From a virus, in the IMG/VR virus record IMGVR_UViG_3300050166_000025, positions 1-64,000 of that record: a DNA stretch of 64,000 bases, one strand, 5' to 3'. The position numbers were made by a program, and so were the translations under genes. Positions 24,810 to 64,000 of this stretch are shown here, piece after piece (the first letter of the stretch is position 1; each line of letters begins with the position of its first letter). The notes beneath the pieces were generated by a model. That model saw only the letters and a program-made list of their open reading frames with translations, had not been told where the DNA came from and ran no database searches.

Positions 24810-25338
24810 GATACATATTAATATGGCAATCAAGAAAAAGTATCCTGAGATTAAGAGAACCGGCGGTCCTTACCCTAAGAATCGTTTTGGAATTCATTAC
24901 TCTACCTTATCAAGGGCCCAGCGAAGACTCTTAATGGACTATCCGTTGTTGAAGGAACGCTGCCAGAGTGATCAATTTGTTCAGATTCTATTTGAGCAAC
25001 ACAGTTATACTTTTAGATCTCATAACGTATTCAATAAACTTTTCTATGATTGGTCGACCGGTGAAGTGGTTCAGCGTGAGGAGTTGACTGAGAATTATCA
25101 AACCATAGATTGGCAGTGCGCTATCTCGGGTTTGCCTATTAGAGCTAAGATGGGTGAGTTTAATCTAGAGAACTTTGTGCACCCTAAATACCACGATGTC
25201 TTATTGGCTCCGATGGTCGATAGTCGCATCTTGAAATCTTCGGTGGAGTTTCGCAAGAAATGCAAAGAACTCCTGCTGAATCAACAACAGGAGTTCCTTA
25301 AAATGGCTAAAAAGAATTCTAAAAAGAATCTAGATTAA
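24802..25338 (+). CDS. Hypothetical protein (plus strand; start may be ATG 24823)
   Basis: Fills the gap between minus-strand genes; contains CAISG...HP. Confidence 0.65.
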   Translation: MFQIHINMAIKKKYPEIKRTGGPYPKNRFGIHYSTLSRAQRRLLMDYPLLKERCQSDQFVQILFEQHSYTFRSHNVFNKLFYDWSTGEVVQREELTENYQTIDWQCAISGLPIRAKMGEFNLENFVHPKYHDVLLAPMVDSRILKSSVEFRKKCKELLLNQQQEFLKMAKKNSKKNLD

Positions 25339-26579
25339 CCTAGTAGCGTTCTAAACTTGTCTGCTATCGAGATAGCGTTAGATTCGTTTATTTTATTGGA
25401 AGATGATTGTCTATCAATCATCATTTTATATTTGGCGTAAAGAGCTGAATTGTTTTCAAGCTGCCAATTTTCTTTAGTTGAAATTTCTGATGCAAGTTCG
25501 TTTAAACCCAGTTCAGTTGCGCTAAACATTAAAGATTCTTTAGGTGATGCATTCTTCTTTAATTCAGCCTTTAAATCTTTGACGCTATTTTGTAATTCTG
25601 CGATATCTTCTTTAGATTTTTGAATTGAATCCTTTAATTTTGCAACTTTTTCTGGATCAGTTTCAGACTTTAATTCTTCTTTAGCTTTTTCAACAGAAGC
25701 TCTTTCATCAGCTATGTTCTTATTATAAGATTTGATGTCTGCTTCCAATTCAGTGTTGGCATCTTTTTTAGGTTCTTCCTTTGTAGGTTCCTCTTTTTTA
25801 GGCTCCTCTCTTTTAGGTTCTTCTGCTTTTTTAGCAGCTTCTTTTTCTTTTTCTTTGTTTTGTAGTTCTTTAATTGCGGATTGTTCTTCGGCGAATCTTC
25901 TATTTAATTCCTTAAAAGAATCAGCTAATTCTTTTTTCTTAGTAGGATTGTCTTCTTGGCCAGAAGCTCTCTTAACTAATTCCATTTTTCCTTTAATCTT
26001 TTCCGAACTTAGCACTTTTCCAATATACTCTCCTCTTTCTCTAGCTTTAGTGTCTACCTCAGATTGTAAATCTTTGATTGCAGCATCCATGTTAGATTTT
26101 TTTGCCTTTAGAGCATCTCTTTTGGGTGCATCTTCTGCCTTTCCTCCCAATAAATCAATAGCCAGTTGAATGTCTAGCGCATTCATTTTCATTTTATTGA
26201 TTTTTTTTTGCATTCCTCTATATTTAGGAGCATAAAAAATCCAATCTGCCATTTTGCTGCCAGCCTCGCCGGCTGTTAATTCAAAAATAGCTTGATCTTC
26301 ATTTAATTCTTCTTCATTCAATTCTTTACTCTCAAACTCATCAAGAGAATTCATTGCTTCCTTAACCTGAACAGATAAGGTTGCTAGCTGTGACATTATA
26401 CTGTCTACGTCTTTTATGATGTCGCTTTTTTCAGCTGAGATTTCTGATTTGACAGTTGTGGATTGTGTAGTTGTTGTAGGATTAGCAGGTGCTGGAGCAG
26501 TCTGTGCCATCTCTGCATTCTCTTTAACTGATTCTGTAATTGATTTATACCAACTCTCGAATGTCATATTGTTTTCCAT
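25335..26579 (-). CDS. Coiled-coil head/internal protein with capsid-targeting-like N-terminus
   Basis: MTFESWYKSITES, ELNEEELNE and INES putative protease sites; EEPK repeats; directly after MCP under a late promoter. Confidence 0.55.
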   Translation of the reverse strand: MENNMTFESWYKSITESVKENAEMAQTAPAPANPTTTTQSTTVKSEISAEKSDIIKDVDSIMSQLATLSVQVKEAMNSLDEFESKELNEEELNEDQAIFELTAGEAGSKMADWIFYAPKYRGMQKKINKMKMNALDIQLAIDLLGGKAEDAPKRDALKAKKSNMDAAIKDLQSEVDTKARERGEYIGKVLSSEKIKGKMELVKRASGQEDNPTKKKELADSFKELNRRFAEEQSAIKELQNKEKEKEAAKKAEEPKREEPKKEEPTKEEPKKDANTELEADIKSYNKNIADERASVEKAKEELKSETDPEKVAKLKDSIQKSKEDIAELQNSVKDLKAELKKNASPKESLMFSATELGLNELASEISTKENWQLENNSALYAKYKMMIDRQSSSNKINESNAISIADKFRTLLG

Positions 26580-26608: not shown

Positions 26609-26617
26609 TATATATTC
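26609..26617 (-). promoter_or_regulatory. Late promoter variant GAATATATA
   Basis: Recurrent motif. Confidence 0.55.
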
Positions 26618-26695: not shown

Positions 26696-28174
26696 TTAAG
26701 ATAAAGAGATTAAGTTAGTCCACTGTGTAGAACCAGCAACTGGTGAAACAGCTAACTTAACATATTGAGTTTCTGGGTGGAAACCTGCTTCAACTAAAGC
26801 AAATCTAGACTTAACAGCAACCTTTGGAGCCATTGTACCTTCTGCGATAGTTTGAACTGATTCAGCCATTAAGTAAGGCATGAATACTAAACCAGGACCA
26901 TTACCATCACCTTTTCTACCAACTAAGATAGTCATGTTGTTCCACTTCCACTTAGGGTTAGTGTAAACTTGAACACCTGCGATAGAACCTACTGGGTAGA
27001 TTGCACCAGCAGCTTGAGAAACTGTGTTAGCAAATGGATTTGGTACGTAACCTGCAACTGATTGTAAAGCTGTAGCAACTTGTGGTCCTACAACCGCAAA
27101 GTTACCTGCACCTCTTCTACCTCTGTTAGCGATTAAGTTAGCGCCAGCTAAGATACCAGTTAAGATTTTTCTGTGCTCAGAACCTTCAGTTTTACCACCT
27201 TGGAAATCTGCTGCACCGTATAATTTAACATCTAAAGCACCTGAAGAAATTTCACCAGCAGTAACTGCTTTAGAAATGTTAGAAGTACCTAATGAATCGA
27301 TGTTAGCGATGATTAAGTCGTTAATAGTTTGAGTTAATTCGTTAACTAAAACAGCTTCAACTTGAGCAACAGCATCAACACCAAATTGCTTTAAGTCTTG
27401 AACTTGCTCTCTAGTTACTGCAGCAGCAACTTGAATAGTCTTAGCTTCAACAGCCTTAGAGAATAAAGAAAGACCCATTAACTTGTCTGGAGTTCTTTCA
27501 CCTTCTTCTCTTGAGTAAGCTTCAGTGTTAGACTTGCCAGAGAATCCTGGAATGTGATCTTCTAATGCTTTAACTAATTCAACAATAGCAGCAGTACCTG
27601 AATCTTGAGCACCTTCAGCAGCTTGTTGAACTGTGTAACCAGCTTCTAAAGTACCGTTAACTTTGTAAATAGCTTTACCGTCGATTCTAGAAGTACCAAC
27701 TTTCACGAATAATAAACCGTGGTTAGGAGTACCTGCTTGATCTGACTCGTATGATTGGTATGCAGACTTGATGTATGTTGGAGCAACACCGTTATCGATT
27801 CTACCACCTTCGTAAACGAAGTCTAAGTAAGATAATAAGCCCATTGGACCAGCCATTGGAATTACTGGAACTAAATCTAAAGCGATAGTTTGAGCAGCAA
27901 CTTGCATTGCTAAAGGTAATAAAGTTGGAGCTTTGTCACCAGAACCTACTGAAGCTGGGTTAGAACCAAATCCTGAAGGGAAAGATACAGCACCCATACC
28001 TCTTAAGTTCATAGTTGGGTCTAATCTCATAATGTTTGCATCTTCGTAAAGCTTGTGATTGTGGCAATACTCAGACATCCATGCTAATTTACCAGCATCA
28101 GAGATACCAGTTGCTGATTCGATAATCGGAGCCCATGTTGCTCTGATTTCAGCTTCGTTAATTAATTGTGCCAT
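26696..28174 (-). CDS. gp23: Major capsid protein
   Basis: WAPIIE, LVPVIPMAGPMG, EQVQDLK, RRGAGNF, LVFMPY and KSRFAL gp23-family motifs; strongly biased codons. Confidence 0.93.
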   Translation of the reverse strand: MAQLINEAEIRATWAPIIESATGISDAGKLAWMSEYCHNHKLYEDANIMRLDPTMNLRGMGAVSFPSGFGSNPASVGSGDKAPTLLPLAMQVAAQTIALDLVPVIPMAGPMGLLSYLDFVYEGGRIDNGVAPTYIKSAYQSYESDQAGTPNHGLLFVKVGTSRIDGKAIYKVNGTLEAGYTVQQAAEGAQDSGTAAIVELVKALEDHIPGFSGKSNTEAYSREEGERTPDKLMGLSLFSKAVEAKTIQVAAAVTREQVQDLKQFGVDAVAQVEAVLVNELTQTINDLIIANIDSLGTSNISKAVTAGEISSGALDVKLYGAADFQGGKTEGSEHRKILTGILAGANLIANRGRRGAGNFAVVGPQVATALQSVAGYVPNPFANTVSQAAGAIYPVGSIAGVQVYTNPKWKWNNMTILVGRKGDGNGPGLVFMPYLMAESVQTIAEGTMAPKVAVKSRFALVEAGFHPETQYVKLAVSPVAGSTQWTNLISLS

Positions 28175-28286: not shown

Positions 28287-28294
28287 TATATATC
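28287..28294 (-). promoter_or_regulatory. Late promoter GATATATA
   Basis: Recurrent motif before MCP. Confidence 0.65.
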
Positions 28295-28323: not shown

Positions 28324-30186
28324 TTACTTTTTGAATCTTTTGTTTAACGCTTCTGCTACACCGTCCATGTTGTATGGTAACTGTTGAGTCTCTACTTCGG
28401 TTGATTCGTTGATGATTTCAACTTTTTCCATCACTGGAGCAACTTCTCTAAAGTCTCTTGTTTGCCAGAAGTTTCTTACTTGATATTCTGTTTCTAATCT
28501 GTGATACTTAGATTGTGCTATTAACTGACTTCTCTTAGATTCAGATAATGTGTTCCAAGTTTCTTTGTATTCTTTTGGCATTGCCGCTAACACGTAAGGC
28601 TCGTTGCTCTCTGTATTTACTGCACCTGCTAAAGATGAGTTCCATAACGCATAGATTTGAGATTCTGTTAAGAAACCTTTACCAGTTACTGCATCTACTA
28701 CTGCAACTTTTTCCGTATCTGTTAAAGTTTCGAACTCTTCTTTCTTTGCTTCAGAAATAAATCTGAAGAAGTGTGGCTCTTCTACTTTCTTTGCGGTTGC
28801 TGATTCTAATAAAGCCTCTAACTTAGCAGAGATTTCGTTCTTGTAAGCTTCCATTCTGTCAACTGACTCAACTACAACTTTACCAGCTTCGCCTTCTTCA
28901 GCTTTTTCGCCATCTACAGTCTTAACTTTATCTTCAGCTTCTCCGTCCTTAGCAACTTCTTTACCAGCTTCTTCTTCTCCTTCTAAATCCTTTTCTAATT
29001 CTTTAGAATCATCATGAGCTGATTGGTCTACTGCTTTATCATCGAATTCGATTTTACCTGAAACATCTTCAGTTTTACCATCTAAGTTGTCTGCTTCGGT
29101 TCCAACTACATCATCAGCTTCAACTAATAGATTAGTGTTAACTGTTTCTGCAACGTACTCGGCGTATTCTGTAACTTGTTGTAAGTTCTCCTTTAAGTAG
29201 TTCATATACTTAACTACATTTTCATGAGACATTGCACCTTCGTTATGAGATTCTGCTAAGTAGTTAGCATATTTCTTAATAGATTCAACTCCTTCAGCAA
29301 TATGCTCAGAGTATTGAATTGATTGGTCTAATTTCTCCGCTAATGAGTCTGCGAATTGAATTCCTTGATCTGCTTTCTCTGCAACGTGCTCTGAATAAGC
29401 AATTGCATCGTTTAACTTTTCAGCAAGGTAAGAAGAATACTCCTTTAAGTTTTCGACCTGAGCTGACATTGACTCGTTGTCGTTTTGCTTAGCAAGAGAT
29501 TCTTTGATTGCTTTGATTTCTTCTGCTAAATACTTAGAGTAATTTTGGAAGTCTTCAGAGCTAATGAATCTTGATGTTTCCATTTTTTCTGCTTCTTTTA
29601 TTTGAGTTTGATTTGTATTATCGTTAGTGTTATCGTAACCTACTTCATAGATTTGAATGTCTGAGTCGTTTTCGAAACCGTAAGCCTCGTTAACTCTTTT
29701 AAGCTCTGCGTTTGCAAAACCTGGATCTGCTACTAGATCGTATGTGAAAAGTTGTTTGATTTTAACTTTACCGTTAGATTCAACTGTACCAGCTGCTCTA
29801 GATGAAATGTGTAAAGGAACTCCTGCATCAACTAGGGCTTTCGCCTGCTTGCCTGCATCAGTATCTAATAGTCTAATTTTACCTAGAATCTGCTTGCTAG
29901 CTTTGTCGTATCTTAATTCTTCGATGATGTGTGAAACATTCTTTAAAGAAACTTCAAAGTTTTGAGGGTGATCTAATTCACCTAATAACTTAGATGATTG
30001 AATTTTAGCTTGAAGAGCCTCAACCTGTGGAAGATATTCATCTTCAGTGTAAATTCTATTGTTACGGTTCAATTTATCAATTTCACCGAAAACGCCTTCA
30101 AGAACATAAGCCCCAGAATTGTCCTGTGCAAAAGATAATGTATTACCGCTTCTCTCTAGAATTAAAAGCTTATGATTTGTATTCAT
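28324..30186 (-). CDS. gp21: Prohead protease (gp21) fused to an acidic scaffold domain (gp22-like)
   Basis: NRNNRIY, LGELDHP, VSH, ISSRAAG and YDLVADP protease motifs, then a long acidic helical region with YSEHxAE repeats. Confidence 0.9.
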   Translation of the reverse strand: MNTNHKLLILERSGNTLSFAQDNSGAYVLEGVFGEIDKLNRNNRIYTEDEYLPQVEALQAKIQSSKLLGELDHPQNFEVSLKNVSHIIEELRYDKASKQILGKIRLLDTDAGKQAKALVDAGVPLHISSRAAGTVESNGKVKIKQLFTYDLVADPGFANAELKRVNEAYGFENDSDIQIYEVGYDNTNDNTNQTQIKEAEKMETSRFISSEDFQNYSKYLAEEIKAIKESLAKQNDNESMSAQVENLKEYSSYLAEKLNDAIAYSEHVAEKADQGIQFADSLAEKLDQSIQYSEHIAEGVESIKKYANYLAESHNEGAMSHENVVKYMNYLKENLQQVTEYAEYVAETVNTNLLVEADDVVGTEADNLDGKTEDVSGKIEFDDKAVDQSAHDDSKELEKDLEGEEEAGKEVAKDGEAEDKVKTVDGEKAEEGEAGKVVVESVDRMEAYKNEISAKLEALLESATAKKVEEPHFFRFISEAKKEEFETLTDTEKVAVVDAVTGKGFLTESQIYALWNSSLAGAVNTESNEPYVLAAMPKEYKETWNTLSESKRSQLIAQSKYHRLETEYQVRNFWQTRDFREVAPVMEKVEIINESTEVETQQLPYNMDGVAEALNKRFKK

Positions 30187-30207: not shown

Positions 30208-30215
30208 TATATATC
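30208..30215 (-). promoter_or_regulatory. Late promoter GATATATA
   Basis: Recurrent motif. Confidence 0.65.
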
Positions 30216-30243: not shown

Positions 30244-30615
30244 TTATAACTTAGAGATATCTGCTCCTAAATCGCCACCGCCAATATCTCCTAAACCATC
30301 GTCTTCTGATTCTTTTTCTTTCTGTTCTTTGTCTGTTTCCTCTTGATTCTTCTCTTCTTGATATTTGTTGAAGTATGTAACCAGTTGACTCATGTCTTCT
30401 GGCGTAAAATCATTCTGACCGTATGTTTGAAAGAAATAATCTTTAAATTGTTCTTCTGTTTCCGATGCAGTAATTGCTCCTAAAATTTCAACAGCTTTAA
30501 TAACTTCACCGGATTCTATTGTTACGTCTTCAACGTATGTTTTAGAATCGGGAGCCTTTACTGGATTTTCAGCTTCGAAAATAAATTGCTCGAATGTTTT
30601 AATATAGCTTTTCAT
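30244..30615 (-). CDS. Prohead core/internal protein with capsid-targeting motif
   Basis: N-terminal IKTFEQFIFE resembles the T4 CTS MKTYQEFIAE; between portal and protease. Confidence 0.6.
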   Translation of the reverse strand: MKSYIKTFEQFIFEAENPVKAPDSKTYVEDVTIESGEVIKAVEILGAITASETEEQFKDYFFQTYGQNDFTPEDMSQLVTYFNKYQEEKNQEETDKEQKEKESEDDGLGDIGGGDLGADISKL

Positions 30616-30633: not shown

Positions 30634-31095
30634 TTAATATGCTAATTTTACGTTGTCTTCTCCGTATACCATTGCAAGAATGTTTGTAAATTCTTCGATC
30701 ATTCCTCTAACATCTTTAGGAGAAATTTCTTTGTTAGCATATATTTGATCTGACTTATCTAATTTAAAACCATACTTCTTAGCCCATTGTTTCATGAGTT
30801 TAAGTTCTTCAGGGTGCATCATTGTAATATATCTAACAACGGCAGTTGCGTCAATATATTCAACTGTCATGTTATCTTCGCTTGCTGGTCTATCTCTAAC
30901 TATTTTGTCAAACAAAATCTCTATTTGCGTGCCATTATGTAGTGTTGCTGCCAATAGAGATGGATATCTAGTAGAATCTGAATTCTTCAACCCTGTTTCT
31001 TTCGCAATAAATTTATTAGCGGTTGCAACCTCATCTCTAGTATAGGTTGTATTCAACTCTGTTATAAATTCTTCAAATAGTTTAATATTTTTCAT
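30634..31095 (-). CDS. Internal head protein with capsid-targeting motif
   Basis: N-terminal MKNIKLFEEFITE. Confidence 0.6.
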   Translation of the reverse strand: MKNIKLFEEFITELNTTYTRDEVATANKFIAKETGLKNSDSTRYPSLLAATLHNGTQIEILFDKIVRDRPASEDNMTVEYIDATAVVRYITMMHPEELKLMKQWAKKYGFKLDKSDQIYANKEISPKDVRGMIEEFTNILAMVYGEDNVKLAY

Positions 31096-32772: not shown

Positions 32773-32781
32773 TATATATTC
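32773..32781 (-). promoter_or_regulatory. Late promoter variant GAATATATA
   Basis: Recurrent motif before the portal gene. Confidence 0.55.
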
Positions 32782-53024: not shown

Positions 53025-54227
53025 TTATTTTGAGTCAAATGATAAGTAAAAACCCGATCTAATTTCAACATTATTTTCGCCTACTTCTCTTTCATATTTT
53101 CCAACTATTTCAGTGTTGTTTTTACGAAGCAGCGCAGCATTTTGCATACCTCCTAATTTTTTAGAGAATTTATTAGAATCTACGTCATCTGCAAAACCAA
53201 TATTAATTACAAAATCCATTGGAATTCTAGCAATTAATTGATTTTCATTAGATGATTCCTCATCCCATTCTTCTCCACTTAAAGTTGCAACAATATAGAC
53301 AATAGATTCTTTATCCTTAACTTGCTTCATCACCTCTTGCTCGATGATTTTAGCACCTTCTTTATCAGCCCATTTAGACCATTCTTTGTTAATATTTTCT
53401 AAAGTTGATTTTGCATCTCCTTCAAATTTAACGTGTTCTACGTGTTTTTTAAATGCAAATAAAACCTTGCCCGGTATACCTTTGGCTCCATAAGAACTTG
53501 TTAATTGATACGCTTTTTCATTTAATTCATTTTCAACAAAGTCAGCGAAAGATTCATAAATAAATGTTTCGTTTGCTTTTTTTGTTCTCTGTTGGTGTAA
53601 CTTTTGTTGCAGAGCTCTTAATCTCTTGCCTTCTTCTTCTTTCTTATCAACTGCTTTTAATCTTGCTAATTGATTTTTCTTATATTGGGCTTTTTGTCTT
53701 TCGGCGTCTGTCATTGGTCTATAACCTGACTCATCAACCTCTTCTGTTTCTTTAATTAGATCTGAAAGATGCATGCCATTTTCTTTTCCAGTTTTAGTGT
53801 CCTTTAACTTGGCTTTGCCGCCTGAGATGCTAACAACCGTAAAAGTTTGAGTTGGATCTTCTCCAATAAATTTTCTTGAAACTGTATCTCCTACTTTGAT
53901 TTCAGAGTTGGATTCATTTGTAGTTTGAGAATTCTCCTTTGACATAATGATATGATTTAGTATTTTTTGTCCGTGTTTAGATAATGAAACCTGATCCTCT
54001 GTGACGTTAAAGTATCCTGCATTTCTTCTTAACCATCTAGAATCGTCTGCTGACATCTCCTTTAAGATAGCTTTAAAATCTGCTTTAGTAATCATGCCAT
54101 CTTTAATGGCTTCAATCACTCTATTTCTAACGTTTGCATGCTTACCGGCTGTTTTAGCAGGATATGCTTCAGTATATTGTCTCTTTAAAGTAATTTTAGA
54201 TTCGTTTAAGAAATCATCAAAATTCAT
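53025..54227 (-). CDS. Multidomain putative internal head (poly)protein
   Basis: MNFDDFLNE; linkers TTNESNSE, IKETEEVDE and YESFADFVENELNE; SH3/KOW-like IKVGDTV module. Confidence 0.6.
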   Translation of the reverse strand: MNFDDFLNESKITLKRQYTEAYPAKTAGKHANVRNRVIEAIKDGMITKADFKAILKEMSADDSRWLRRNAGYFNVTEDQVSLSKHGQKILNHIIMSKENSQTTNESNSEIKVGDTVSRKFIGEDPTQTFTVVSISGGKAKLKDTKTGKENGMHLSDLIKETEEVDESGYRPMTDAERQKAQYKKNQLARLKAVDKKEEEGKRLRALQQKLHQQRTKKANETFIYESFADFVENELNEKAYQLTSSYGAKGIPGKVLFAFKKHVEHVKFEGDAKSTLENINKEWSKWADKEGAKIIEQEVMKQVKDKESIVYIVATLSGEEWDEESSNENQLIARIPMDFVINIGFADDVDSNKFSKKLGGMQNAALLRKNNTEIVGKYEREVGENNVEIRSGFYLSFDSK

Positions 54228-54259: not shown

Positions 54260-55738
54260 CTATTTCATTTTAAATCCTAGCTTACCATTATCTGGGCTAT
54301 ATACTGACTGATTCGGTGCCTCGAAAGTAAATTTAACTCCCTCATTTGAGAAAGACTTAAGATGTAATAACATCTCCTGTTTCTTTGGAGCAAAGTCTAA
54401 ATACAATTGCTTGACTTCTAGCTTTGAGAGTAATTCTGTTAAAGCTGTCTGATAAACTTGATTTTGATTTAAAATATCTGTCACGTGATAGCAAAGTGGT
54501 CCAACTACTGCGCCATATACTTTTTTATCTTTTACCCTTGACCATTCTACTTTATTTCCTGAAGGTGCTCTACCTATTGTTTTATAGAAATCGGCAAAGA
54601 TAGTCATAAATTGATCTGGATTCTTCGCTAGAATTTCAGTGATGTATTGGTTTAAACTGTCTACTGTCACGTCGGCAATTCCTGTAATCTGTTGTAATTT
54701 AACGTATCCTGGCATTTGAAGATACTTTGCAATCTCTAAGTATCCTGAAGAAACTTTATTACCGTCAACTATTTGAAATATTTTATACAGTTGTTCTTGC
54801 GCATCTGTTGTTAACTGATCGGCCTTGATATTTTTAATGATTCCTGAAAGAGTAGGTGCAGCACCCGATTTATATTTAGAAGAAACTCCATACCCGTCAA
54901 TGTAAAAATCAACCAGCGGATTATTACCGGAAGGAAACTCAATTCCATCTACATATTTAGTAACTCCTAGCATATAGATTGCTCCTAGAATTTCACCAAA
55001 ATCTTTACCGACTGTATTTAGATCAGACGTATCGAAGTGTGTAATTAAGTGAGCTGTTTTGTTTGAATATTTAATGACTTCATCGAGAGTCTTAATAAAG
55101 CCCGGAGATTCAAAATTATATTTTGAACGATGTGATGCAACATCATCTACCATTGCATGTAATAAATCTACTATTACTTGCTGATCACTGAATTTATTGA
55201 TCACCGCTTGTTTTGTCAAACTTACAAGTTGACTCTGCTGTAAATAAGAATTGGGCAAACCTAGTCCCGTTGGAGTTAGTGCCTTTGAATTAAAAGAACC
55301 AACCGCAACATCATCGTTTACAATGTTAAACTCTAACCCTGCTGGAAATTCTAATCCTTTAATGGTGACTGCGTCCTCTAACTTTACTCTGTATGTGTAA
55401 TATTTTCCAGAGTACGATCCATTTCCGTAATTACCGGGTTCAACGGTTTCAACTGAATAGTTATTCAATTCCTTTTTAAGAATAGCATTTATATTGTTAA
55501 CTGTGTCAGACACAGTTTTACCCATCATATATCGTAGATGTTTAGGCCTTCTACCCGATTCAGATTTTCCATCATATCCAGCTTTATCTAAAACTGGTCT
55601 TATAAAATCTATTAGCTTTCCAGCGTCTGCTTGCTTAGATTCGTTGATCGCTTTGTTAAGCGCCATTTCAAATCTGGCTCTAATATCTCCTGGTGTAATT
55701 GCCATTCTCTTATTTGTTAAATTCTTTGAATTGTTCAA
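54260..55738 (-). CDS. Hypothetical protein with PD-(D/E)xK-like nuclease motif (start probably 55705)
   Basis: DFGEILG...FP...PLVDF...VSSK; N-terminal AINES putative cleavage site. Confidence 0.5.
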   Translation of the reverse strand: MNNSKNLTNKRMAITPGDIRARFEMALNKAINESKQADAGKLIDFIRPVLDKAGYDGKSESGRRPKHLRYMMGKTVSDTVNNINAILKKELNNYSVETVEPGNYGNGSYSGKYYTYRVKLEDAVTIKGLEFPAGLEFNIVNDDVAVGSFNSKALTPTGLGLPNSYLQQSQLVSLTKQAVINKFSDQQVIVDLLHAMVDDVASHRSKYNFESPGFIKTLDEVIKYSNKTAHLITHFDTSDLNTVGKDFGEILGAIYMLGVTKYVDGIEFPSGNNPLVDFYIDGYGVSSKYKSGAAPTLSGIIKNIKADQLTTDAQEQLYKIFQIVDGNKVSSGYLEIAKYLQMPGYVKLQQITGIADVTVDSLNQYITEILAKNPDQFMTIFADFYKTIGRAPSGNKVEWSRVKDKKVYGAVVGPLCYHVTDILNQNQVYQTALTELLSKLEVKQLYLDFAPKKQEMLLHLKSFSNEGVKFTFEAPNQSVYSPDNGKLGFKMK

Positions 55739-57575
55739 ATGTTAATATCTCTGATTCCTCAAAGGTTTCAACTGCTTCAACCAGGCTTAAAGATTTCTCT
55801 AGCTTTTCTTTCAACTCATTAAACATAGGGTGCAACGAGGACGGAGTCATCTTATTGAATTCTTTAGTGTCTCCTGACTCTAATGCTGCTCTAACTTTAG
55901 TGGCCGAGATATCGTCATCTCCTCTTTGAATCTCATGCAGTTCAAATTCTGGAAGAACTCCTAACTCCTCACGATACTTATCATTATTAACCATGTATCC
56001 ATAGGCTTTCATTCTATCGGTGCCTGTGCCCCATAAAACAGGTTCATACTTAGGTCTTAACTCGTTGAACATTACGTCAATTGCAGCAGATGGAACAACT
56101 ATCACATCCTTTAAGAACTTAAATTCTTTTTGAACGTGATTGAACATTTCAATCTGTGTTTCAGTGTCGTACGGTCTCTTGATTGCATCTTCTTTCTTTG
56201 CTTTTGCAGCCTTTACTAAGAATACAACCACTGGAAAACCATTTTTCTTGTATAATGTTTCTAAGACTTTGACGTGGCCTAGTGTAAATGGCTGAAATCT
56301 TCCAACGAAGATATTAACCTTCTCTTTTCCTTGCTCGGCATGAGCAACTTTAAGAGCCTCATTCAGGTTAGACTTAGTGGTCTTAATCTTATTATGAAGC
56401 ATATATGTGTTAAAATTATGGATAGCATTCTCATCTGTTACTTCAGAATAGATGTGCTCCTCAATTTTATCTATAATCTCGTTTAACTGGTCTATCATTG
56501 TTTGATTCATCAATGAAGACTCCTTAATTTTTCTCTTGTTGAATGAGCCTAAAATTATCTTAAACAACTCGGCTAACATTGGATTCTCAACGTAATTCAG
56601 TGTCTTTTCGTTCTCAATCCATTTTGTATTCAACTCGAACACCTCTGATTTTGCAAATTCTGCCGGCTGAAAATTAACGCCAACATACTTTGTGGCATTC
56701 TCTTTTACATAATCATTATACATTACTGAAATTAACTGAATGTATCTTTTATCGGCGGCCGCTTCTGTCAATTCAACCGCATCAATGCTGTAATTAGAAA
56801 AGAATTCTAAAATATCTACCATTGTTAATTGGTACATGTGACTGCCTTCTCTCGGCTCACTATTAGATTCGGCCTTTAGGTCATCTAACTTAAATGATTT
56901 GATTTGAGTAGAGTCAATAAAGCTAATCACTAATCCATCAATCGGCTTTACTAAATCTTCGTTTAAAACTGATTTATATGCAGAAGGATTAAACATCTTA
57001 TATACGTACTGTGTAAATGATTCGTTTGCAAATCTTGTAGTGTAAGCCTCATTTGAAGTGGCTAATAGATTTACTAGTAAATTTCGCTGTGATTCATCTA
57101 GAATACCCTCAAACACTACAGAGGGAGCCTGAACCTCTAGTTTAGTAGCCCATTCAGTTAAGATGACAGGGTCTGTTAGGACTTTCTTAACTTTTCCAGT
57201 ATTGCTTAACACTTGAATGTGTGAAAGAATCATTGAGTTATACGGAGTCTGATCATATTGAATTGAAGAAACTGAAGTCTCTGGTAAATAATCAAAGCCA
57301 AATTTCCAATCAGTTGGCATGTCTAGCTTAGTATTCTTTACTAGGGCTTGAAAATGCTTGATTCCTGTCTCGTATAATGATGTTAAAGTTCTATCTACCA
57401 TTGACATTGGCTCCGAGTTACCAGATTTAAAGTATTCAAAGCCTTCTAAACCTCTTCTAACGTGAAAAGAGGCCGCAGCAATCTTTTCAGTTACTACCAC
57501 CTTTTGTTTCAACATTTCATTGAAAGCGTTTGAATTTGTTGCTTGATAAAAGTCTTTAAGTCTTTGTAGTGCCAT
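55710..57575 (-). CDS. Degenerate ligase-like N-terminal domain fused to a HIGH-family cytidylyl/adenylyltransferase domain
   Basis: VTEKIAA (degenerate KxDG), DGLVI and FKL; GRFQPFTLGH, GTDR and ISATKVR; LNE linker; C-terminal LTFEQF. Confidence 0.7.
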   Translation of the reverse strand: MALQRLKDFYQATNSNAFNEMLKQKVVVTEKIAAASFHVRRGLEGFEYFKSGNSEPMSMVDRTLTSLYETGIKHFQALVKNTKLDMPTDWKFGFDYLPETSVSSIQYDQTPYNSMILSHIQVLSNTGKVKKVLTDPVILTEWATKLEVQAPSVVFEGILDESQRNLLVNLLATSNEAYTTRFANESFTQYVYKMFNPSAYKSVLNEDLVKPIDGLVISFIDSTQIKSFKLDDLKAESNSEPREGSHMYQLTMVDILEFFSNYSIDAVELTEAAADKRYIQLISVMYNDYVKENATKYVGVNFQPAEFAKSEVFELNTKWIENEKTLNYVENPMLAELFKIILGSFNKRKIKESSLMNQTMIDQLNEIIDKIEEHIYSEVTDENAIHNFNTYMLHNKIKTTKSNLNEALKVAHAEQGKEKVNIFVGRFQPFTLGHVKVLETLYKKNGFPVVVFLVKAAKAKKEDAIKRPYDTETQIEMFNHVQKEFKFLKDVIVVPSAAIDVMFNELRPKYEPVLWGTGTDRMKAYGYMVNNDKYREELGVLPEFELHEIQRGDDDISATKVRAALESGDTKEFNKMTPSSLHPMFNELKEKLEKSLSLVEAVETFEESEILTFEQFKEFNK

Positions 57576-57628: not shown

Positions 57629-58912
57629 TTATCTGCCATATTTTATTATTCCCATCAGTTGATTAATGGCTGCAAACGTCCCAGTAAGCTTAAACAGCTT
57701 TCCTTTATATTGGAATACTAGGCCTTCAGATGGAACAATAGACTGGATTCCTCCAATTCTATCAAGTCTCTGTAGTTCTTTTTCAACCTTTGCTAACTGG
57801 CTTAGGTCTCCATTCTGTTTGATTTTATCTGCTTCAGTTTTAATCTGAGTGTGAAGTCTCTGCATCTCCTTATCAGGATTTGCCACTAAAAGATTTGAAA
57901 CGTTCTTTAAGACAACCGAACCCAACTCTAAGAAAATGTTCTCAAAAGGTTCGATGTTCTCTTTAAACTTCTTTTTAGCGTCCTCTTTATCGAAACGTTG
58001 AAACTCTTTGTATTCAGCGTCAGACATTTTCTTTGCCAGGTCTCTAATGTTAAGAGTCTTCTTATCATCAAAAGCCCATCTCTGAACTAAACCTGCCTTA
58101 TCGATTTCGTCTAGGTTCTTAAAGTCCTTGTCGATCAATTCTTTCCACCACATTGAATGGTATTTTGAAACCGGATCAGTGTCCTGTAAATGGTATCTGT
58201 TCTGTAAATCTGCTACTTTTTTCATGAAGTAGCCTTTCTTCTCTTCAAAATCGATTGCCTTGCCAATTTGTAATTCTTGAGGAGGAATAATCTGGAATAC
58301 AGATTGTATGTCTTTATTTACGCCTTTAATTGCGTTTGCAATTTGAGAAGCCAATTTAGAGTCTGCTCCAGTTTGATTTCCTTCACCGTCAGTATGAATC
58401 ATTCCATGGAATTGAATAACGTCTTTCTCATAGGAGATAACGTTTGCATTGCCTGAGTAGATTAGCTCCATGTTCATGAAAGATTTGCCTTCGTTGAATT
58501 CAGCCTGATCTTTCTTTGACAAGTGTTGCAGGGCTGATGTCAAGTCTTTTGCTGCGAAAGTAAATGTATCTTTAACTGCAGGCGATGGATGGTCTTGAAA
58601 CATCTGTGTAATTGTCGCTAAGTCAATAGGAGTTTTCATCTGCCCTTTGTTTCGTGCAAATAAGACTTGTCCGCCTTTCATTGTTACAAATAGATTTTGA
58701 CCATCTGTTTTTTCGGTTGGAGCCTCTTCAAAATTAAGACGACCTTGTAATGCAGCATCAACGATATGCTTGATTTCTCCAAATGTTAGAGTGTCATCGT
58801 CAAAGGGGTGCATCATGTGACCAGCTGCTCCACCTTCTAAAACTAGTGTTGGGAACTTATTGTTCCATTTTTCTAATAAGAAATCTTGAAATTTTAAAAG
58901 AGGTGTTTTCAT
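57629..58912 (-). CDS. RNA/DNA ligase-like nucleotidyltransferase (DUF6267-like) with capsid-targeting leader
   Basis: LKFQDFLLE leader; GGAAGHMMHP; TEKTDG (motif I), ARN, EGLVF (IV) and FKLTG (V). Confidence 0.65.
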   Translation of the reverse strand: MKTPLLKFQDFLLEKWNNKFPTLVLEGGAAGHMMHPFDDDTLTFGEIKHIVDAALQGRLNFEEAPTEKTDGQNLFVTMKGGQVLFARNKGQMKTPIDLATITQMFQDHPSPAVKDTFTFAAKDLTSALQHLSKKDQAEFNEGKSFMNMELIYSGNANVISYEKDVIQFHGMIHTDGEGNQTGADSKLASQIANAIKGVNKDIQSVFQIIPPQELQIGKAIDFEEKKGYFMKKVADLQNRYHLQDTDPVSKYHSMWWKELIDKDFKNLDEIDKAGLVQRWAFDDKKTLNIRDLAKKMSDAEYKEFQRFDKEDAKKKFKENIEPFENIFLELGSVVLKNVSNLLVANPDKEMQRLHTQIKTEADKIKQNGDLSQLAKVEKELQRLDRIGGIQSIVPSEGLVFQYKGKLFKLTGTFAAINQLMGIIKYGR

Positions 58913-58920
58913 ATTAATGT

Positions 58921-58946
58921 AAAAAGACCTGGAATTATCCAGGTCT
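58921..58946 (-). terminator. Intrinsic terminator
   Basis: AGACCTGGA/TCCAGGTCT stem plus T-run on the minus strand. Confidence 0.7.
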
Positions 58947-58966: not shown

Positions 58967-61585
58967 TTATCCTAAGCTTGAAGTTAGCATTCCAACTGCT
59001 TCTCCATAATTAGAGCCGGCAACTTTTAGAATACCATCTACTACTTCTTGAGCTTTAGCTTCATCGAAGTCTGCTTCAAAAGCTTGCTTTAAAACTTTGA
59101 ATGCGTATTCTTTAAATTGCTCATCAGAAGTAATATCCTCCTCGTTGATTTCAACTTCCACTTCTTCTGTTAAATTAGTATCTGAGATGCTAACTTTATA
59201 AGTTTTACCATTGAATTCAAATTCTTTTTTGCCTTCTTGCTTAGCTTTAGCTGCAGCGTATACAAAGGCATTGCCTTCAGAAACTACTAATTCTAAATCC
59301 TTGTCTTTATCTGCAATAGCATCATTTAATTCTGATTCTAATGAATTTTTCTTAGCAGTTAATTCTTTTAACTTAGCTAATAGTGGTGCTTTAGCATCTC
59401 CTTCGGCTTTCTTCCAAGAGTCAACTGTTGATTTCATCTCCGCTGTTACTTTAGTCCACTCGTTTTGAATTTTATTGATTGAACGAGCTTCATCGATAGA
59501 TTCTACCGATTCTTTAATTGATTTAAGATTCTTAACGATAGTGTCAACTGAATCATTATATTTACCATAAGCAACTCCAGATTTAACGGCCATATTAACT
59601 ACTTGACCATCATCATAAATGTTATATGAGCCTCCTGCAAATTCTTCTCCATCAACATCTAAATCAAATGAATCTTCTTCTAAAGTTCTCTGATTGACAG
59701 TACACTTGCAATTGTCTTTCTTTGAAATAGCTTTTGCATAAACTTCTGCTACTTTTTTAGTTTCAGCTTTAGAAAGACCCATAGGTTCTTTTTTACCCCA
59801 TAGAGACCAAACCGTATCGGCTTCATTTAAATCTTCACCTTCTTTAATTGCATGTTTTGCCTCCTCTTTATCCCACTTTGATTTTGGCATAGTGCCAACT
59901 CTTTCAATCTTTTCGTCGTCTAATAATTTATCTACGTTTTTATCTGCCCATGATTTAGCAGCCTTATAGTCTTTGAATGTGTCTATTAATTTTTTACCCT
60001 TTTCGAGCTCAACGTAAGCAACGTACTCTTCAGATTCATTAACTTCAACTGATTCAAATGCTTTGTCTTTTTTAGGGGCTGGAAGAATATCACCTACCTT
60101 TGGTAATTTATCGTATTGTTTTAGCCAATTTTCTTCGAGCATCACACCAAACATCATGCGAAATCTTTTATCATCAAGCTTTGATACGTCTGGGAAAGAT
60201 GAATGAATAACTTTATCAACGCTGACAACATAAATTTCATCAGCTTTTTTATCAATTGCGTAAGTTACTAGAGTCTTATCGAAATCTTTAGAACCAAACA
60301 TGCCTTCAAAAACTTCAACTGATTCTGGAATCATTCCTAATTTTTTAACAGCGATTGAAAATCTGTCTTCTAATTTTTCAAAAGCAGATTTAATAGCTTC
60401 TAATTCTTTAGTCCACTCTTTATTTCCTTTTGTAGCATGTAATAAATTACCAATTTGAACTTGTAATTTATTCATAAGGTCAGCTGTTTTGTCATGGATA
60501 TCGATGTCTTCATTTACTTCGATTGCTTCCTCTATTTTATCGCCTTTGATTCTACGATAAACAATGCCGTAAACATCTCCATTGCCAAAATCAACGTCAC
60601 ATTGATCGCTACTGCATTTTACTACTTTACCTTTCTTGTCATTCTTTACCATTGTTAGTTCATCACCAACTTTAGGTTTATTGGCTTCGTTCACTTCTAA
60701 AGATTCTGCTAAACCATATTTGTTAATAGTTTGCTTAACGAAGTTAGCTGCATCTTTTACAGAGTAATCCATGTCTTTTGCTAATTTCTTTAAGAAGTTT
60801 TCAATCATTTTCTCTTCATAAGAAAAACCCTCTGAGACTTCAACTGATTCTTTAACGGGCTTTAATTCTTTATCGTCGTATACATCAGCCATGTACCACT
60901 TACCATCTCTCTCATCGAATAAGTAAACGTATTCTGAATTAGATTCGTTACCAGCATCCTTTAAATATTTTGAGATAGATTTAACATCAGACTTCATTGT
61001 CATATCTCTGTCCTTCTCATCTCTATCTCTACCATAGAATAAAGTGATACCTCTATCAGGCTTATCAAAATCTTGTGGTTTATCTCCAATTTGTTTCTCT
61101 AAAGATGAAATACCGTACTTTCCTAAATCTAATAATTTATTAAGTGTTTTTGAATCTTTATAGTGCTTTAGTAAAGGAATTCTTGTGTTTGGGTTACCGT
61201 CCCAGTGAACATACACCGATGTGATTTTTCCGGCCTTGTCAATCTTACCAATTTGAGAACGAGTTGCTTCAGTAACTAAAGACTCGTTTGTAGACTGAAC
61301 TTTCTTGCCTTCTTCATCTTCGTGCTTTTTAGGCTCGCCCATTTTAACTTTAGCAGCTTCAATATCCTCAGCTCTATCTTCGTTAAAAATTTTAGCAACT
61401 AGGGCTGTTCTTTTCTCCTCGTCTAATTCATCAAACGAAGTAACTCCCTCTTCTTCAAGAGTTTGACCAATCTTAGCTAAAAGTTGCTCTCTTTTTGTCT
61501 TGTTTTCTTCGTGCATCTTAATCGAAGCCTGTTGGTTCTTAACCTCAGTAAAGCTCTTAAAAGATGAAATTCTTTGTACTGACAT
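58967..61585 (-). CDS. 872-aa putative capsid-internal polyprotein
   Basis: Eleven recurring E-S/A-V/L/I-E-V-x-E-like linkers separate unrelated small modules; own late promoter and terminator. Confidence 0.7.
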   Translation of the reverse strand: MSVQRISSFKSFTEVKNQQASIKMHEENKTKREQLLAKIGQTLEEEGVTSFDELDEEKRTALVAKIFNEDRAEDIEAAKVKMGEPKKHEDEEGKKVQSTNESLVTEATRSQIGKIDKAGKITSVYVHWDGNPNTRIPLLKHYKDSKTLNKLLDLGKYGISSLEKQIGDKPQDFDKPDRGITLFYGRDRDEKDRDMTMKSDVKSISKYLKDAGNESNSEYVYLFDERDGKWYMADVYDDKELKPVKESVEVSEGFSYEEKMIENFLKKLAKDMDYSVKDAANFVKQTINKYGLAESLEVNEANKPKVGDELTMVKNDKKGKVVKCSSDQCDVDFGNGDVYGIVYRRIKGDKIEEAIEVNEDIDIHDKTADLMNKLQVQIGNLLHATKGNKEWTKELEAIKSAFEKLEDRFSIAVKKLGMIPESVEVFEGMFGSKDFDKTLVTYAIDKKADEIYVVSVDKVIHSSFPDVSKLDDKRFRMMFGVMLEENWLKQYDKLPKVGDILPAPKKDKAFESVEVNESEEYVAYVELEKGKKLIDTFKDYKAAKSWADKNVDKLLDDEKIERVGTMPKSKWDKEEAKHAIKEGEDLNEADTVWSLWGKKEPMGLSKAETKKVAEVYAKAISKKDNCKCTVNQRTLEEDSFDLDVDGEEFAGGSYNIYDDGQVVNMAVKSGVAYGKYNDSVDTIVKNLKSIKESVESIDEARSINKIQNEWTKVTAEMKSTVDSWKKAEGDAKAPLLAKLKELTAKKNSLESELNDAIADKDKDLELVVSEGNAFVYAAAKAKQEGKKEFEFNGKTYKVSISDTNLTEEVEVEINEEDITSDEQFKEYAFKVLKQAFEADFDEAKAQEVVDGILKVAGSNYGEAVGMLTSSLG
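60042..60850. repeat. 14-bp direct repeat ACTTCAACTGATTC x3 encoding the ESVEV linker (60042-60055, 60312-60325, 60837-60850)
   Basis: Exact copies read from the sequence; degenerate copies near 60516 and 60693. Confidence 0.8.
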
Positions 61586-61631: not shown

Positions 61632-61639
61632 TATATATC
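61632..61639 (-). promoter_or_regulatory. Late promoter GATATATA
   Basis: Recurrent motif before the polyprotein gene. Confidence 0.65.
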
Positions 61640-61643
61640 TAAC

Positions 61644-61986
61644 TTATTCACTTTCAAACGTAACTTTCTTTATTTCATAAGTGAATTGCTCTTGTTTGTA
61701 GATTTGCTGTCTCGCTATGCCATGTTTATATAGATAGTTTTCCCATTCTAGAGTGCATAGATTGTCAACAAAATCAACAATTAAGACATCGGTTTTTGAC
61801 TCATGCTGTCTTAGCCCTCTACCAATCGACTGTCTAATAATCACTTCTGATTTAAAAGACTCTGTGAAAAAGACACTGTGTATTTTTTTGATTGAGATTC
61901 CTGTTGAAAACGTTCCGTCAATATGAGGCAACGATAACAACCGCTGCCTCTTCCGCATTTATGTTTTTATGAGCTGTTGGCTTCAT
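61644..61986 (-). CDS. uvsW: UvsW helicase C-terminal fragment, interrupted by a 4-nt insertion (needs +1 recoding)
   Basis: ATG 61986 gives MKPTAHKNINAEEAAVVIVASY, then TGA C, then +1 frame GTFSTGISIK...RQSIGRGLR...VDFVD (motifs V and VI). Confidence 0.75.
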
Positions 61987-62002
61987 GTTCCTTTATCTTT
62001 TT

Positions 62003-62953
62003 TTATAGTTTATTAAATTTGTAACCTTCTGTGTTTATTGCGGCCTGACTTTTTTTACGGCTCGTAAGCTGTTGAGCTGGCAATCCTGTATTTGCAAATT
62101 GTCTTATCAGAGTTATATTGAAATTGAATTCATTGACTATTGCATGTAAACCTTCTCTATACAAAATATTGCCGTCTCTATCTATGATTTCGTATTTATC
62201 TCCTGGCTTTTTCTTTCTATTTCTCATTTTTTCAATGAATTCTGGATCTTGCCAATGCTTTTTTATTGTGCTTCCCGCCTTTTCTCTTTTAGCAGGATCT
62301 TTGTTGACATCATTCATTTTATTTTTAAATGAAATACGTTCTTCTTCACTCATATTTTCATATCTCTTGATGCCTCTTTCGCTAGCAACATTCGGATTAT
62401 TCTTAAAGTATTCTTTCATCTGTTCAGACTTTATTAATTTAAGTTCATCTGTCCAATTCTCTTTATTGATCTCGCATCTTTTTTCGTACTGTTCTTCGCT
62501 TAAATTGTCCCATCCCTTTTTTGATCTTCGGCCCTGTTCTTCGGATGACAATTTTTTCATAGATTCAGATCTTTTTTTACAAAAAGAATCATATTTTTCC
62601 TTGTCGTTTTTAAGTGTTTCCCATCCCTTCTTCGCTGCAGCCGAAACCAAATCAGAATCTTTATAAACTTTAGAGTTCATAAAATTAAGAGTGCGTTGAT
62701 ACGCCCTATTATTGTAAGCTTTAAATAAGATTTCATGAGCCTTAATGTGATCTTCATATTTCAACCTTATCATATTCCAACTTTCAGTAATGTATTCAGG
62801 ATACTTTGACCTTGGCAATATATGATGAACTTCCGAATATGATTCGTTATCGTATGTGTAATTTAATAAAAAATCAATGTATTCTTCTAAATGAAGAGGT
62901 GAATCTGGAAAACCTTCTGTTGATATAAAGATATTGTAAATTTCGTCTTTCAT
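62003..62953 (-). mobile_element. Free-standing HNH homing endonuclease (Mob-like) inserted in uvsW
   Basis: EVHHILPRS...NMIRL...HIKAH HNH motif; basic S..K..W repeats; own late promoter at 62958-62966. Confidence 0.85.
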
Positions 62954-62957
62954 ATAC

Positions 62958-62966
62958 TATATATTC
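62958..62966 (-). promoter_or_regulatory. Late promoter variant GAATATATA for the HNH gene
   Basis: Motif ends 4 nt upstream of the HNH ATG. Confidence 0.5.
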
Positions 62967-62989
62967 GTCAAACTTTACGATAATACCAG

Positions 62990-64000
62990 TTATAGTTCTT
63001 TTATTTTTTGAATGATCCATTCATCATCTATATCATCGTCTAGTGTAATATCCTTTGCAAACTTAAAGCTGCCGTCCGATAGTGGCACCTTTGCGTACTG
63101 TAGTACCTTTATTATTTTTTCGCCAAACTCGATGATAGTATGGTCGTCTTGAGAATTTTCCATTTTCTTCTTATGCTCTTCTCTAATGTCCTTATCGGTA
63201 CCGCCGTCAACGTAATATACTTTCTTATTGCTCTTCTCTCTAAGCGCCTCGTATAGTTTTCTACCGTGTTCGATTCGGTGAAAAAGTACCAGAGAATTCC
63301 TTGGTACTCTGGAAATGACTGAGACAATGAAATCAAGCCTTGCCTGATTATTGACCACATAGTTTTGCTCCAGTTGAAAGACGTCTTTATTTTCATAACG
63401 GTTTAATGCTAAATCTTGGAATGCTTGTTTTGTTGTTTCTGGGGCATAATTCATTTCAATCACTTTCACTTTGCATCCTGCAATATAGCCTTCTTTTTGC
63501 AAGAAAGCTGCTTTTACCTCTGTGATAACCGGTCCGGTTTGCGACATTAGGGTTAATTTGTCTAGGGTTCCTTCCTTTGGAATGGTTCCTGTCAAGCCAA
63601 ATTTATAGCTTGCATTTCTACACTTACCTAAGATTTCTTTAATAGATGCTGATTTCATCTTGTGACACTCGTCAATTATAACTGCGTCAAACTCGTCGAA
63701 GTAGGCTACGTCTTTCTTAACCAGAGACTGGTATGTACCTATTACTACGTTTGAGTTGGGCTTAATAGTTTGTCCTGAAAATATTTGTTGAATTTTGATT
63801 CTAACCCCGTTTCGCCAGTTAAAATCTTGAAAGTCCTCAGTCGCTTGTACAACCAGTGAAACGTTAGGCACAATGAAAAGAATCTTAGCTGCCTTTTGAT
63901 GCTCTAACATATAGGCAACCGTCATGAATGAAATCATTGTTTTACCAGCGGAAGTTGCTAGTTCCGATAAGGACCTTTTGAATTTTAGGATATTAAAGGC
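62990..64000 (-). CDS. uvsW: UvsW SF2 helicase N-terminal part (starts beyond the window) with a non-helicase C-terminal tail
   Basis: ATSAGKT (Walker A, near 63940-63960), IVPN, TYQS, DECH, GLTGT and YYVDG; homology stops at KKMEN. Confidence 0.9.
   Translation of the reverse strand, partial: AFNILKFKRSLSELATSAGKTMISFMTVAYMLEHQKAAKILFIVPNVSLVVQATEDFQDFNWRNGVRIKIQQIFSGQTIKPNSNVVIGTYQSLVKKDVAYFDEFDAVIIDECHKMKSASIKEILGKCRNASYKFGLTGTIPKEGTLDKLTLMSQTGPVITEVKAAFLQKEGYIAGCKVKVIEMNYAPETTKQAFQDLALNRYENKDVFQLEQNYVVNNQARLDFIVSVISRVPRNSLVLFHRIEHGRKLYEALREKSNKKVYYVDGGTDKDIREEHKKKMENSQDDHTIIEFGEKIIKVLQYAKVPLSDGSFKFAKDITLDDDIDDEWIIQKIKEL

Follow-up and report, generated by a model that had tools for sequence, protein, structure and literature searches.

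Introduction

Whether one phage gene can hold a set of small cargo proteins that are separated from each other only during capsid assembly is the question raised by an 872-aa open reading frame (ORF), here designated P0001, in the virus record IMGVR_UViG_3300050166_000025. The window analyzed consists of the first 64 kb (64,000 nucleotides) of this 151-kb IMG/VR contig, the estimated completeness of which is approximately 47%. From the features described below, it appears reasonably probable that P0001 is a cargo polyprotein, expressed late and targeted to the capsid, of a jumbo phage related to T4. The chain would be packed, cut and delivered together with the DNA; packaging, cleavage, retention in the head, injection and the roles of the individual modules are what we infer from the sequence.

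Architecture of P0001

P0001 occupies positions 58967-61585 on the minus strand as a stop-free frame and consists of a 14-residue leader followed by 11 modules (45-146 aa) that are split by 10 linkers. The linkers have hydrophobic-x-Glu ends, mostly of the form ES(V/L)EV-N-E, and are followed by Ala or Gly. Cuts are predicted after residues 69, 106, 252, 300, 359, 427, 517, 588, 699, 770 and 815, with the leader ending at E14. A preliminary description of this DNA had proposed a chain of about 12 modules joined by a recurring acidic linker. All 11 of the linker strings that it named were found in P0001, while the number of modules was revised to 11 and the second module, which it had placed at 61267-60851, was found to span 61267-60830. 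An origin of the long frame as a fused-gene artefact was considered and rejected, the open frame being maintained in more than 400 homologs. The gene is divided as follows.

58967..61585, minus strand: P0001 polyprotein coding sequence (predicted), 872 aa, stop codon included
61544..61585, minus strand: leader, residues 1-14, T4-like capsid-targeting type, MSVQRISSFKSFTE; predicted cut after E14; ..SF..F..E start in 65 orthologs
61268..61543, minus strand: M1, residues 15-106; conserved acidic region, predicted to be helical; extra FNE site at 69; end NESLVTE
60830..61267, minus strand: M2, residues 107-252; compact alpha/beta domain of the phrog_1987 family; end KESVEVSE
60686..60829, minus strand: M3, residues 253-300; end AESLEVNE; at other positions in homologs P0002, P0004, P0005 and P0006
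60509..60685, minus strand: M4, residues 301-359; end EEAIEVNE; duplicated in P0004; weak phrog_3728 match
60305..60508, minus strand: M5, residues 360-427; end PESVEVFE; delimited by per-module homolog comparison
60035..60304, minus strand: M6, residues 428-517; end FESVEVNE; delimited by per-module homolog comparison
59822..60034, minus strand: M7, residues 518-588; end KEGEDLNE; delimited by per-module homolog comparison
59489..59821, minus strand: M8, residues 589-699; end KESVESIDE; divergent copy in P0003
59276..59488, minus strand: M9, residues 700-770; predicted helical hairpin; end LELVVSE; widespread in the polyprotein family
59141..59275, minus strand: M10, residues 771-815; end EVEVEINE; often repeated in homologs
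58970..59140, minus strand: M11, residues 816-872; C-terminal, conserved, helical and very acidic

M1 was N-terminal in every homolog examined and is possibly a long propeptide.

The linkers resemble gp21-type cleavage sites

The minimal motif [LIVMF]xE was present in 33 copies in P0001, 12 of them at joints and 21 elsewhere inside the protein, and its count alone was not significant. The extended motif E[SAE][VLI]E[VLI]xE occurred five times, a number never reached in 20,000 shuffles of the protein (maximum 2), and its strict form had one other occurrence in the whole 151-kb contig. A position matrix was built from the joints of the homologs, with P0001 left out. At a score of at least 6, this joint matrix selected exactly the 10 inter-module linkers of P0001 and no position within the modules; at a score of at least 7.5, it selected 10 sites in the 872 aa of P0001, compared with approximately 0.5 sites per 1000 aa for the rest of the contig's ORFs. 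The logo of 358 distinct module-start contexts showed V, I or L at P3 in 86%, mostly N, T, E or S at P2, E at P1 in 95% and G or A at P1' in 78%, and [LIVMF]xE stood at 326 of these 358 joints, compared with 3.8% per position in the background. As the codons of the linkers differ synonymously, the constraint acts on the protein; three of the linkers have 14 identical bases in common (GAATCAGTTGAAGT). A second hydrophobic-x-E was located 6 or 7 residues upstream in seven of the 10 P0001 linkers (e.g., VKE/SVEVSE/, with slashes at the predicted cuts), and a double cut at such linkers would release a short spacer peptide.

The phage encodes a presumed processing enzyme of the T4 gp21 family as well as a T4 gp23-like major capsid protein (MCP).

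28324..30186, minus strand: prohead protease, S77 (T4 gp21-family) domain (approximately residues 1-190) with a long coiled-coil/acidic tail, 620 aa, phrog_207; presumed processing enzyme
26696..28174, minus strand: MCP, T4 gp23-like; candidate propeptide sites LINE-7 and KLYE-44

The protease ORF matched PF03420 (Peptidase_S77) with 42.9 bits (cut-off 27) and T4 gp21 by BLASTP with E = 1e-10, its His (ELDHP) and Ser (SSR) motifs being aligned with those of the T4 enzyme. Its tail contains repeated YLAE/YSEH motifs, joint-type sites are found at residues 167 and 594, and the ORF looks like a self-processing protease-scaffold fusion. The MCP is most closely related to those of huge uncultured phages (LR756500, 52% identity), of Lak phages and of the Tenacibaculum phages PTm1 and PTm5.

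The joint matrix was also applied to T4 protein sequences, taken from NC_000866. In each of four T4 proteins, its top score fell on what we take to be the gp21 cleavage site, namely E19 of internal protein (IP) I (9.4), E10 of IPII, E10 of IPIII and E65 of gp23, and high scores were also obtained for sites in gp22, gp68 and the C-terminus of gp21. This ranking, together with the S77 protease encoded by the phage, supports the earlier proposal that the linkers are sites of the gp21 type. That proposal had extended to similar sites in the MCP; LINE and KLYE are indeed present there, although both score low on the joint matrix. In T4, the leader of IPIII has a length of 10 residues and the propeptide of gp23 one of 65 residues (PMC9026906, PMC5694885), and processing is prevented when the P1 Glu is replaced by Asp (PMC9026906).

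Cleavage would recreate the N-terminus of a stand-alone family at M2

Scans of the P0001 modules against Pfam and PHROG returned nothing significant except for a match of M2 to phrog_1987 (E = 8.4e-20, profile positions 2-122 of 128) and a weak match of M4 to phrog_3728. No Pfam entry was found for the M2 family, members of which in phages of Caulobacter (CcrColossus gp083) and Cronobacter (GAP32_348) begin MATRSN...HWDGY. Almost no matches were returned when M2 was used by itself in a word-indexed search, and an exhaustive HMMER search was needed, by which 2107 representative clusters were found. A sample of the family contained 60 stand-alone proteins starting M/[AGS]TRS and 21 proteins with a short leader, in which hydrophobic-x-E abuts the module (e.g., MKLKSLISESLLTE/ATRSQ and ..KLFEEFINEKPINE/GTRSQ). 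In the copies embedded in polyproteins, hydrophobic-x-E abutted the very residue that follows Met in the stand-alone members without exception (174/174). Since the stand-alone members start M-[AGS]-T-R-S, a cut after the joint Glu would recreate the N-terminus that they have after removal of Met. A family of this kind had been mentioned in the preliminary description, with the suggestion that a cut after VTE in P0001 would restore its start; the 60 sampled members establish that the family exists, and the stand-alone homologs of modules whose search had been advised were found for M2, while M4 and M8 were found behind short leaders.

The family alignment contains a nearly invariant Thr at position 2 and the motifs H-W-D-G and R-D-R. 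That a free N-terminus is strictly needed is a hint that it may be functional. The fold of M2 predicted from an alignment of stand-alone members is a compact alpha/beta domain, with a predicted local distance difference test score (pLDDT) of 91.8 and a predicted template modeling score (pTM) of 0.86, the pLDDT of the linker tail being 57. No meaningful fold match to it was obtained with Foldseek against the PDB (best E = 0.028) or with VIA-align against 48,161 chains (best Z 4.1), and its structural relatives in BFVD were uncharacterised phage proteins only. For P0001 as a whole, AlphaFold2 run on the single sequence gave no informative model (mean pLDDT 40, pTM 0.24), and the ESM Atlas model was poor (pTM 0.25), with no usable look-alikes for residues 428-699 and 700-872.

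Modules are shuffled at the linkers within a fixed locus

Among 5.8 billion proteins, more than 423 homologs of P0001 with lengths of 479-1526 aa were found, all of them metagenomic, in addition to 129 shorter ones. The end points of high-scoring segment pairs from full-length BLAST were blurred, as the alignments ran through the similar linkers, and each module was therefore compared separately by BLAST against 120 homologs. The per-module alignments started and ended at the linkers, and the order and content of the modules varied among the homologs. The order was M1-M2-M4-M5-M3-M6-M8-M9-M10-M11 in P0002 and M1-M10-M2-M9-M6-M5-M11 in P0012, P0004 carried two copies of M4, and in P0003 M8 was 59% identical to that of P0001 while the modules flanking it were 95-100% identical and all other shared modules 84-100%. 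The modules are thus independent evolutionary units that are shuffled exactly at the linkers. Some also occur outside the chain, M4 being found after the leader of P0342 (158 aa) and of P0344 (211 aa), two short proteins with no other module of the P0001 chain, and P0331 consisting of a leader of the capsid-targeting sequence (CTS) type and M8, again without other such modules. When 197 family members were cut at matrix sites, 148 segment clusters were obtained, 38 with at least three members and 91 singletons, although these counts of module families are rough because under-cut segments merged M1, M2, M9 and M10 in the automatic clustering.

The position of the gene was constant. In 8 close and 74 more distant contigs, a homolog was located between an uninterrupted uvsW-like helicase gene and the orf427 and cytidylyltransferase-like genes. 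The gene in this slot measured 167-1016 aa (median 557) in the 65 contigs with both flanks and had 1-11 high-scoring joints, its length being correlated with the number of joints (r = 0.74). Fixed module content in orthologs, named beforehand as an observation that would speak against a cargo chain, was not seen, the composition varying along with this length. Insertion, loss, duplication, reordering and replacement at the joints would make this one fixed locus an expandable cargo slot. The minimal genes (205-223 aa) were of the form M1-M10-M11 or M1-M11-M11, and the simplest reading is that M1 and M11 (and M10) would form a conserved chassis of small size that has received insertions of cargo modules.

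Leader and putative late-expression signals

The leader of P0001 matches those of the T4 internal proteins, which are MKTYQEFIAE in IPII and IPIII and MKTFKEFTS...ITE in IPI, and all 65 syntenic orthologs had a leader of this type (e.g., MNKLQDFNSF, MEKLKSFEQF and ..ISSFKSFTE). A strict N-terminal pattern, M..F[EK]xF..E, was found in only five ORFs of the 151-kb contig, three of them in the head-gene cluster; the five are P0001, orf414, which adjoins the MCP gene, two small ORFs located between the genes for the portal and the protease, and a 182-aa ORF beyond the window. A looser scan added approximately five ORFs, namely orf427 (MKTPLLKFQDFLLE), the ORF at 53025-54227 and three ORFs beyond the window, one of which starts MKTFNEYLAE. 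The presence of the same leader type on head-cluster ORFs bears out the CTS-like start assigned to P0001 in the preliminary description, and the late promoter and terminator that it had assigned to the gene correspond to a late-promoter-type box and a terminator-like hairpin.

61632..61639, minus strand: late-promoter-type box GATATATA, 46 nt upstream of the P0001 ATG
58925..58946, minus strand: intrinsic-terminator-like hairpin and T run, just 3' of the P0001 stop codon
30244-30615 and 30634-31095, minus strand: two small ORFs between the portal and protease genes, with leaders MKSYIKTFEQFIFE and MKNIKLFEEFITE (strict pattern)
Window 25335-26579, 30244-30615, 30634-31095 and 53025-54227, and contig 68197-68565, 106277-106747, 106752-107300 and 119142-120095: members of a set of approximately 10 contig ORFs with a T4-like leader

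The box sequence RATATATA was present in 17 copies in the window, compared with 9.9 expected, and 16 of the 17 were on the coding (minus) strand. It precedes the portal, protease, MCP and orf414 genes, P0001 and other genes (e.g., at 30208-30215, 32773-32780, 28287-28294 and 26609-26616).

The 182-aa ORF, at contig positions 106752-107300, was observed to consist of a leader, an acidic stretch, the joint EEAVEVSE/G and one 60-aa module, and is a one-module miniature of the polyprotein.

Proposed mechanism and alternative explanations

In the proposed pathway, the 14-residue leader, perhaps aided by M1, would bring the 99-kDa precursor into the core of the assembling prohead, where the gp21-family protease would cut after Glu at every hydrophobic-x-Glu joint. 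Candidate binding partners of the leader are the protease tail, orf414 and the MCP. Cutting would remove the leader and release approximately 10 small folded proteins (5-17 kDa) with defined N-termini, and these would remain in the head and enter the host together with the DNA.

A chain that is cut in the prohead could also act as an auxiliary scaffold or core filler in the manner of gp22, gp67 and gp68, its pieces being expelled or serving as mere bulk or counter-ions. A conserved chassis (M1 N-terminal, M9-M11 C-terminal) around a variable middle gives the appearance that bulk alone mattered, the acidic composition is shared with scaffold proteins, the paired cut motifs 6-7 residues apart in many linkers would suit degradation, and T4 core proteins undergo multi-site cutting and clearance (PMC5694885). 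However, M2 is predicted to fold well as a 17-kDa domain in which polar residues (H, D, RDR) are nearly invariant, and the leaderless relatives that it has in unrelated Caulobacter, Cronobacter and Campylobacter phages argue for an independent function. A filler would not be expected to preserve the native N-terminus of M2 in every embedded copy, and the head cluster already contains scaffold-like proteins (the protease tail and orf414). A filler role is therefore regarded as unlikely. It is quite improbable that P0001 remains uncleaved, as a virion or cytoplasmic protein of the beads-on-a-string type in which the linkers are flexible spacers and recombination seams. The joint logo, with a hydrophobic P3, Glu at P1 and a small residue at P1', is the gp21 pattern and not that of a generic spacer, and the matrix derived from it selects the T4 cleavage sites; furthermore, xxE also directly precedes single modules that follow a short leader, a setting in which there are no domains to be linked. 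The 14 bases identical in three linkers could promote recombination, although linker codons vary, and this explanation also draws on the extended motif being nearly private to the P0001 gene and on the whole-chain models having no fixed overall shape. As a further alternative, cutting of the polyprotein could take place in the host cytoplasm, whether by another protease or by the prohead protease acting outside the capsid, and supply equimolar small late proteins that are not packaged. The gene does lie among those for nucleic-acid enzymes (the helicase, the ligase-like orf427 and the cytidylyltransferase-like ORF) and away from the head genes. Proteases of the gp21 type, however, become active inside the assembled prohead, P0001 has a leader that agrees with the T4 CTS and with those of head-cluster ORFs, and the late box is common to P0001 and the head genes, which makes cytoplasmic processing very improbable. 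A packaged cargo polyprotein accounts better for the joint logo and the leader than does either an uncleaved chain or a cytoplasmic polyprotein.

Several observations nevertheless weigh against packaged cargo. P0001 lies approximately 29 kb from the head-gene cluster, between the uvsW-like helicase gene and orf427. The joint matrix misses the gp24 site of T4 and gives low scores to the MCP candidates LINE-7 and KLYE-44, both of which are weak points of the cross-check. The 21 copies of [LIVMF]xE that lie off the joints indicate that the minimal motif is insufficient by itself to define the cuts, and the ESVEVNE linker being nearly private to P0001, taken with the low scores of the MCP sites, suggests that the linker may encode more than a minimal protease site. 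Every module is acidic (isoelectric points 4.2-6.2), versus values of 8.9-9.5 for T4 IPI-III. As no module has a recognised function or a solved fold, the term 'effector' is a guess. Finally, no cultured relative with the polyprotein gene was found in the phage collection, all homologs being metagenomic.

Beyond this gene, it is possible, if somewhat doubtful, that the locus exemplifies a general plug-in virion-cargo system in T4-related jumbo phages of marine and other Bacteroidota, in which small proteins would be captured by way of a gp21-type junction and have their native N-termini restored in the capsid, the fast-changing modules (tens of recurrent families and approximately 90 singletons among the 197 proteins sampled) then forming a large pool of first-minute anti-defence or takeover factors that would reach the host ahead of all phage gene expression.

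Comparison with known systems

The T4 proteins IPI, IPII, IPIII and Alt resemble P0001 in having a short leader of the MK..(F/Y)xEFxxE type that ends in hydrophobic-x-Glu, and T4 shares with the P0001 phage a gp21-family protease; late expression, a feature of the T4 proteins, is suggested for P0001 by the promoter box. T4-type internal proteins are small cargo (95 aa before processing for IPI), the set of which varies between related phages (PMC3012670, PMC9026906). They are encoded as one leader and one cargo per gene and are basic, whereas P0001 has one leader, approximately 10 modules that are acidic and internal cut sites, and variation in its family arises, unlike that of the T4 internal proteins, when modules are shuffled within a single ORF whose locus is fixed. 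In the giant phages phiKZ, 201phi2-1 and SPN3US, head and ejection proteins are processed by a related protease with x-x-Glu cleavage, several cuts per precursor and propeptides of more than 100 residues (PMC5694885). These long propeptides resemble the leader and M1 of P0001, and SPN3US gp53 and gp54 start ...ARESVE (PMC5694885). In the giant phages, however, the extra cuts fall in discarded propeptides and yield one mature product, whereas each segment of P0001 is a conserved module and several are also found as single genes. The T4 core proteins gp22, gp67 and gp68 are acidic and are cut by gp21 at several L/I-x-Glu sites in the prohead core (PMC5694885), those of gp22 and gp68 scoring high on the joint matrix. 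They are encoded by conserved head-cluster genes and their fragments are mostly cleared; P0001, in contrast, lies elsewhere, is variable in content and has folded modules (as predicted) with stand-alone relatives.

Polyvalent proteins have 2-15 unrelated domains, predicted co-delivery with the DNA, possible proteolytic release and heavy domain shuffling (Iyer et al. 2017, PMC5512222). They are similar to P0001 in joining many unrelated domains in one polypeptide and in the mosaic many-domain architecture between relatives, which is present in the P0001 family. They are defined by conflict domains (MPTase, ART, ParB-like, PBECR and others) and often have an embedded peptidase, whereas P0001 has very small modules, a conserved site for a protease acting in trans at the joints and a T4-type leader. 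The polyvalent hallmark domains (zincin-like MPTase, ART, DdrB-ParB, PBECR, ArdA/ArdC, methylases and others) and embedded peptidases gave no Pfam or PHROG match at E <= 0.5 with the whole of P0001 or with any module, although remote versions can escape a sequence search. RNA-virus polyproteins likewise are single products cut by a viral protease at conserved junctions into functional proteins, but their proteases and domains are unrelated and they supply replication machinery, whereas the processing proposed for P0001 would take place in a DNA phage capsid and yield cargo. A full-text literature search found no published description of protease-jointed cargo polyproteins, although a paper outside the searched set is possible.

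If the cargo reading is correct, the T4 principle of a CTS and gp21, in which each gene supplies a single cargo, would be extended to a gene that carries a whole magazine. The protease site would then be both the release mechanism and the seam for cargo exchange, and the diversification of injected proteins in large phages would be explained. The leader and joints together would provide a sequence rule for spotting injected proteins in metagenomes, and dozens of small families (e.g., that of M2, with >2000 representative clusters) would become candidates for early host manipulation or anti-defence. In practical terms, the arrangement suggests a natural design for loading several proteins into phage capsids at fixed stoichiometry.

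Neighboring genes and minor observations

The gene orf427 (window 57629-58912, minus strand) has the CTS-like start noted above as well as a KTDG string that is similar to motif I of ligases; it gave no sequence match in Pfam, PHROG or the PDB. From its start, it may be another capsid-targeted protein. The 621-aa ORF at 55710-57575 (minus strand) combines an unassigned N-terminal part with a C-terminal cytidylyltransferase-like domain (PF01467). Four joint-type sites lie in it, after residues 156, 206, 271 and 406, and it may also be a cleavable multi-module protein. The motif scan further returned a GTG-start ORF of tandem EPRQRQEPVEL-like repeats beyond the window (contig 131981-132310, minus strand), which may be a spurious frame lying on a DNA repeat. 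The uvsW-like helicase gene on the other side of P0001 (window 61644-63937, minus strand) is interrupted by an HNH endonuclease gene at 62003-62953 and is uninterrupted in all related contigs examined.

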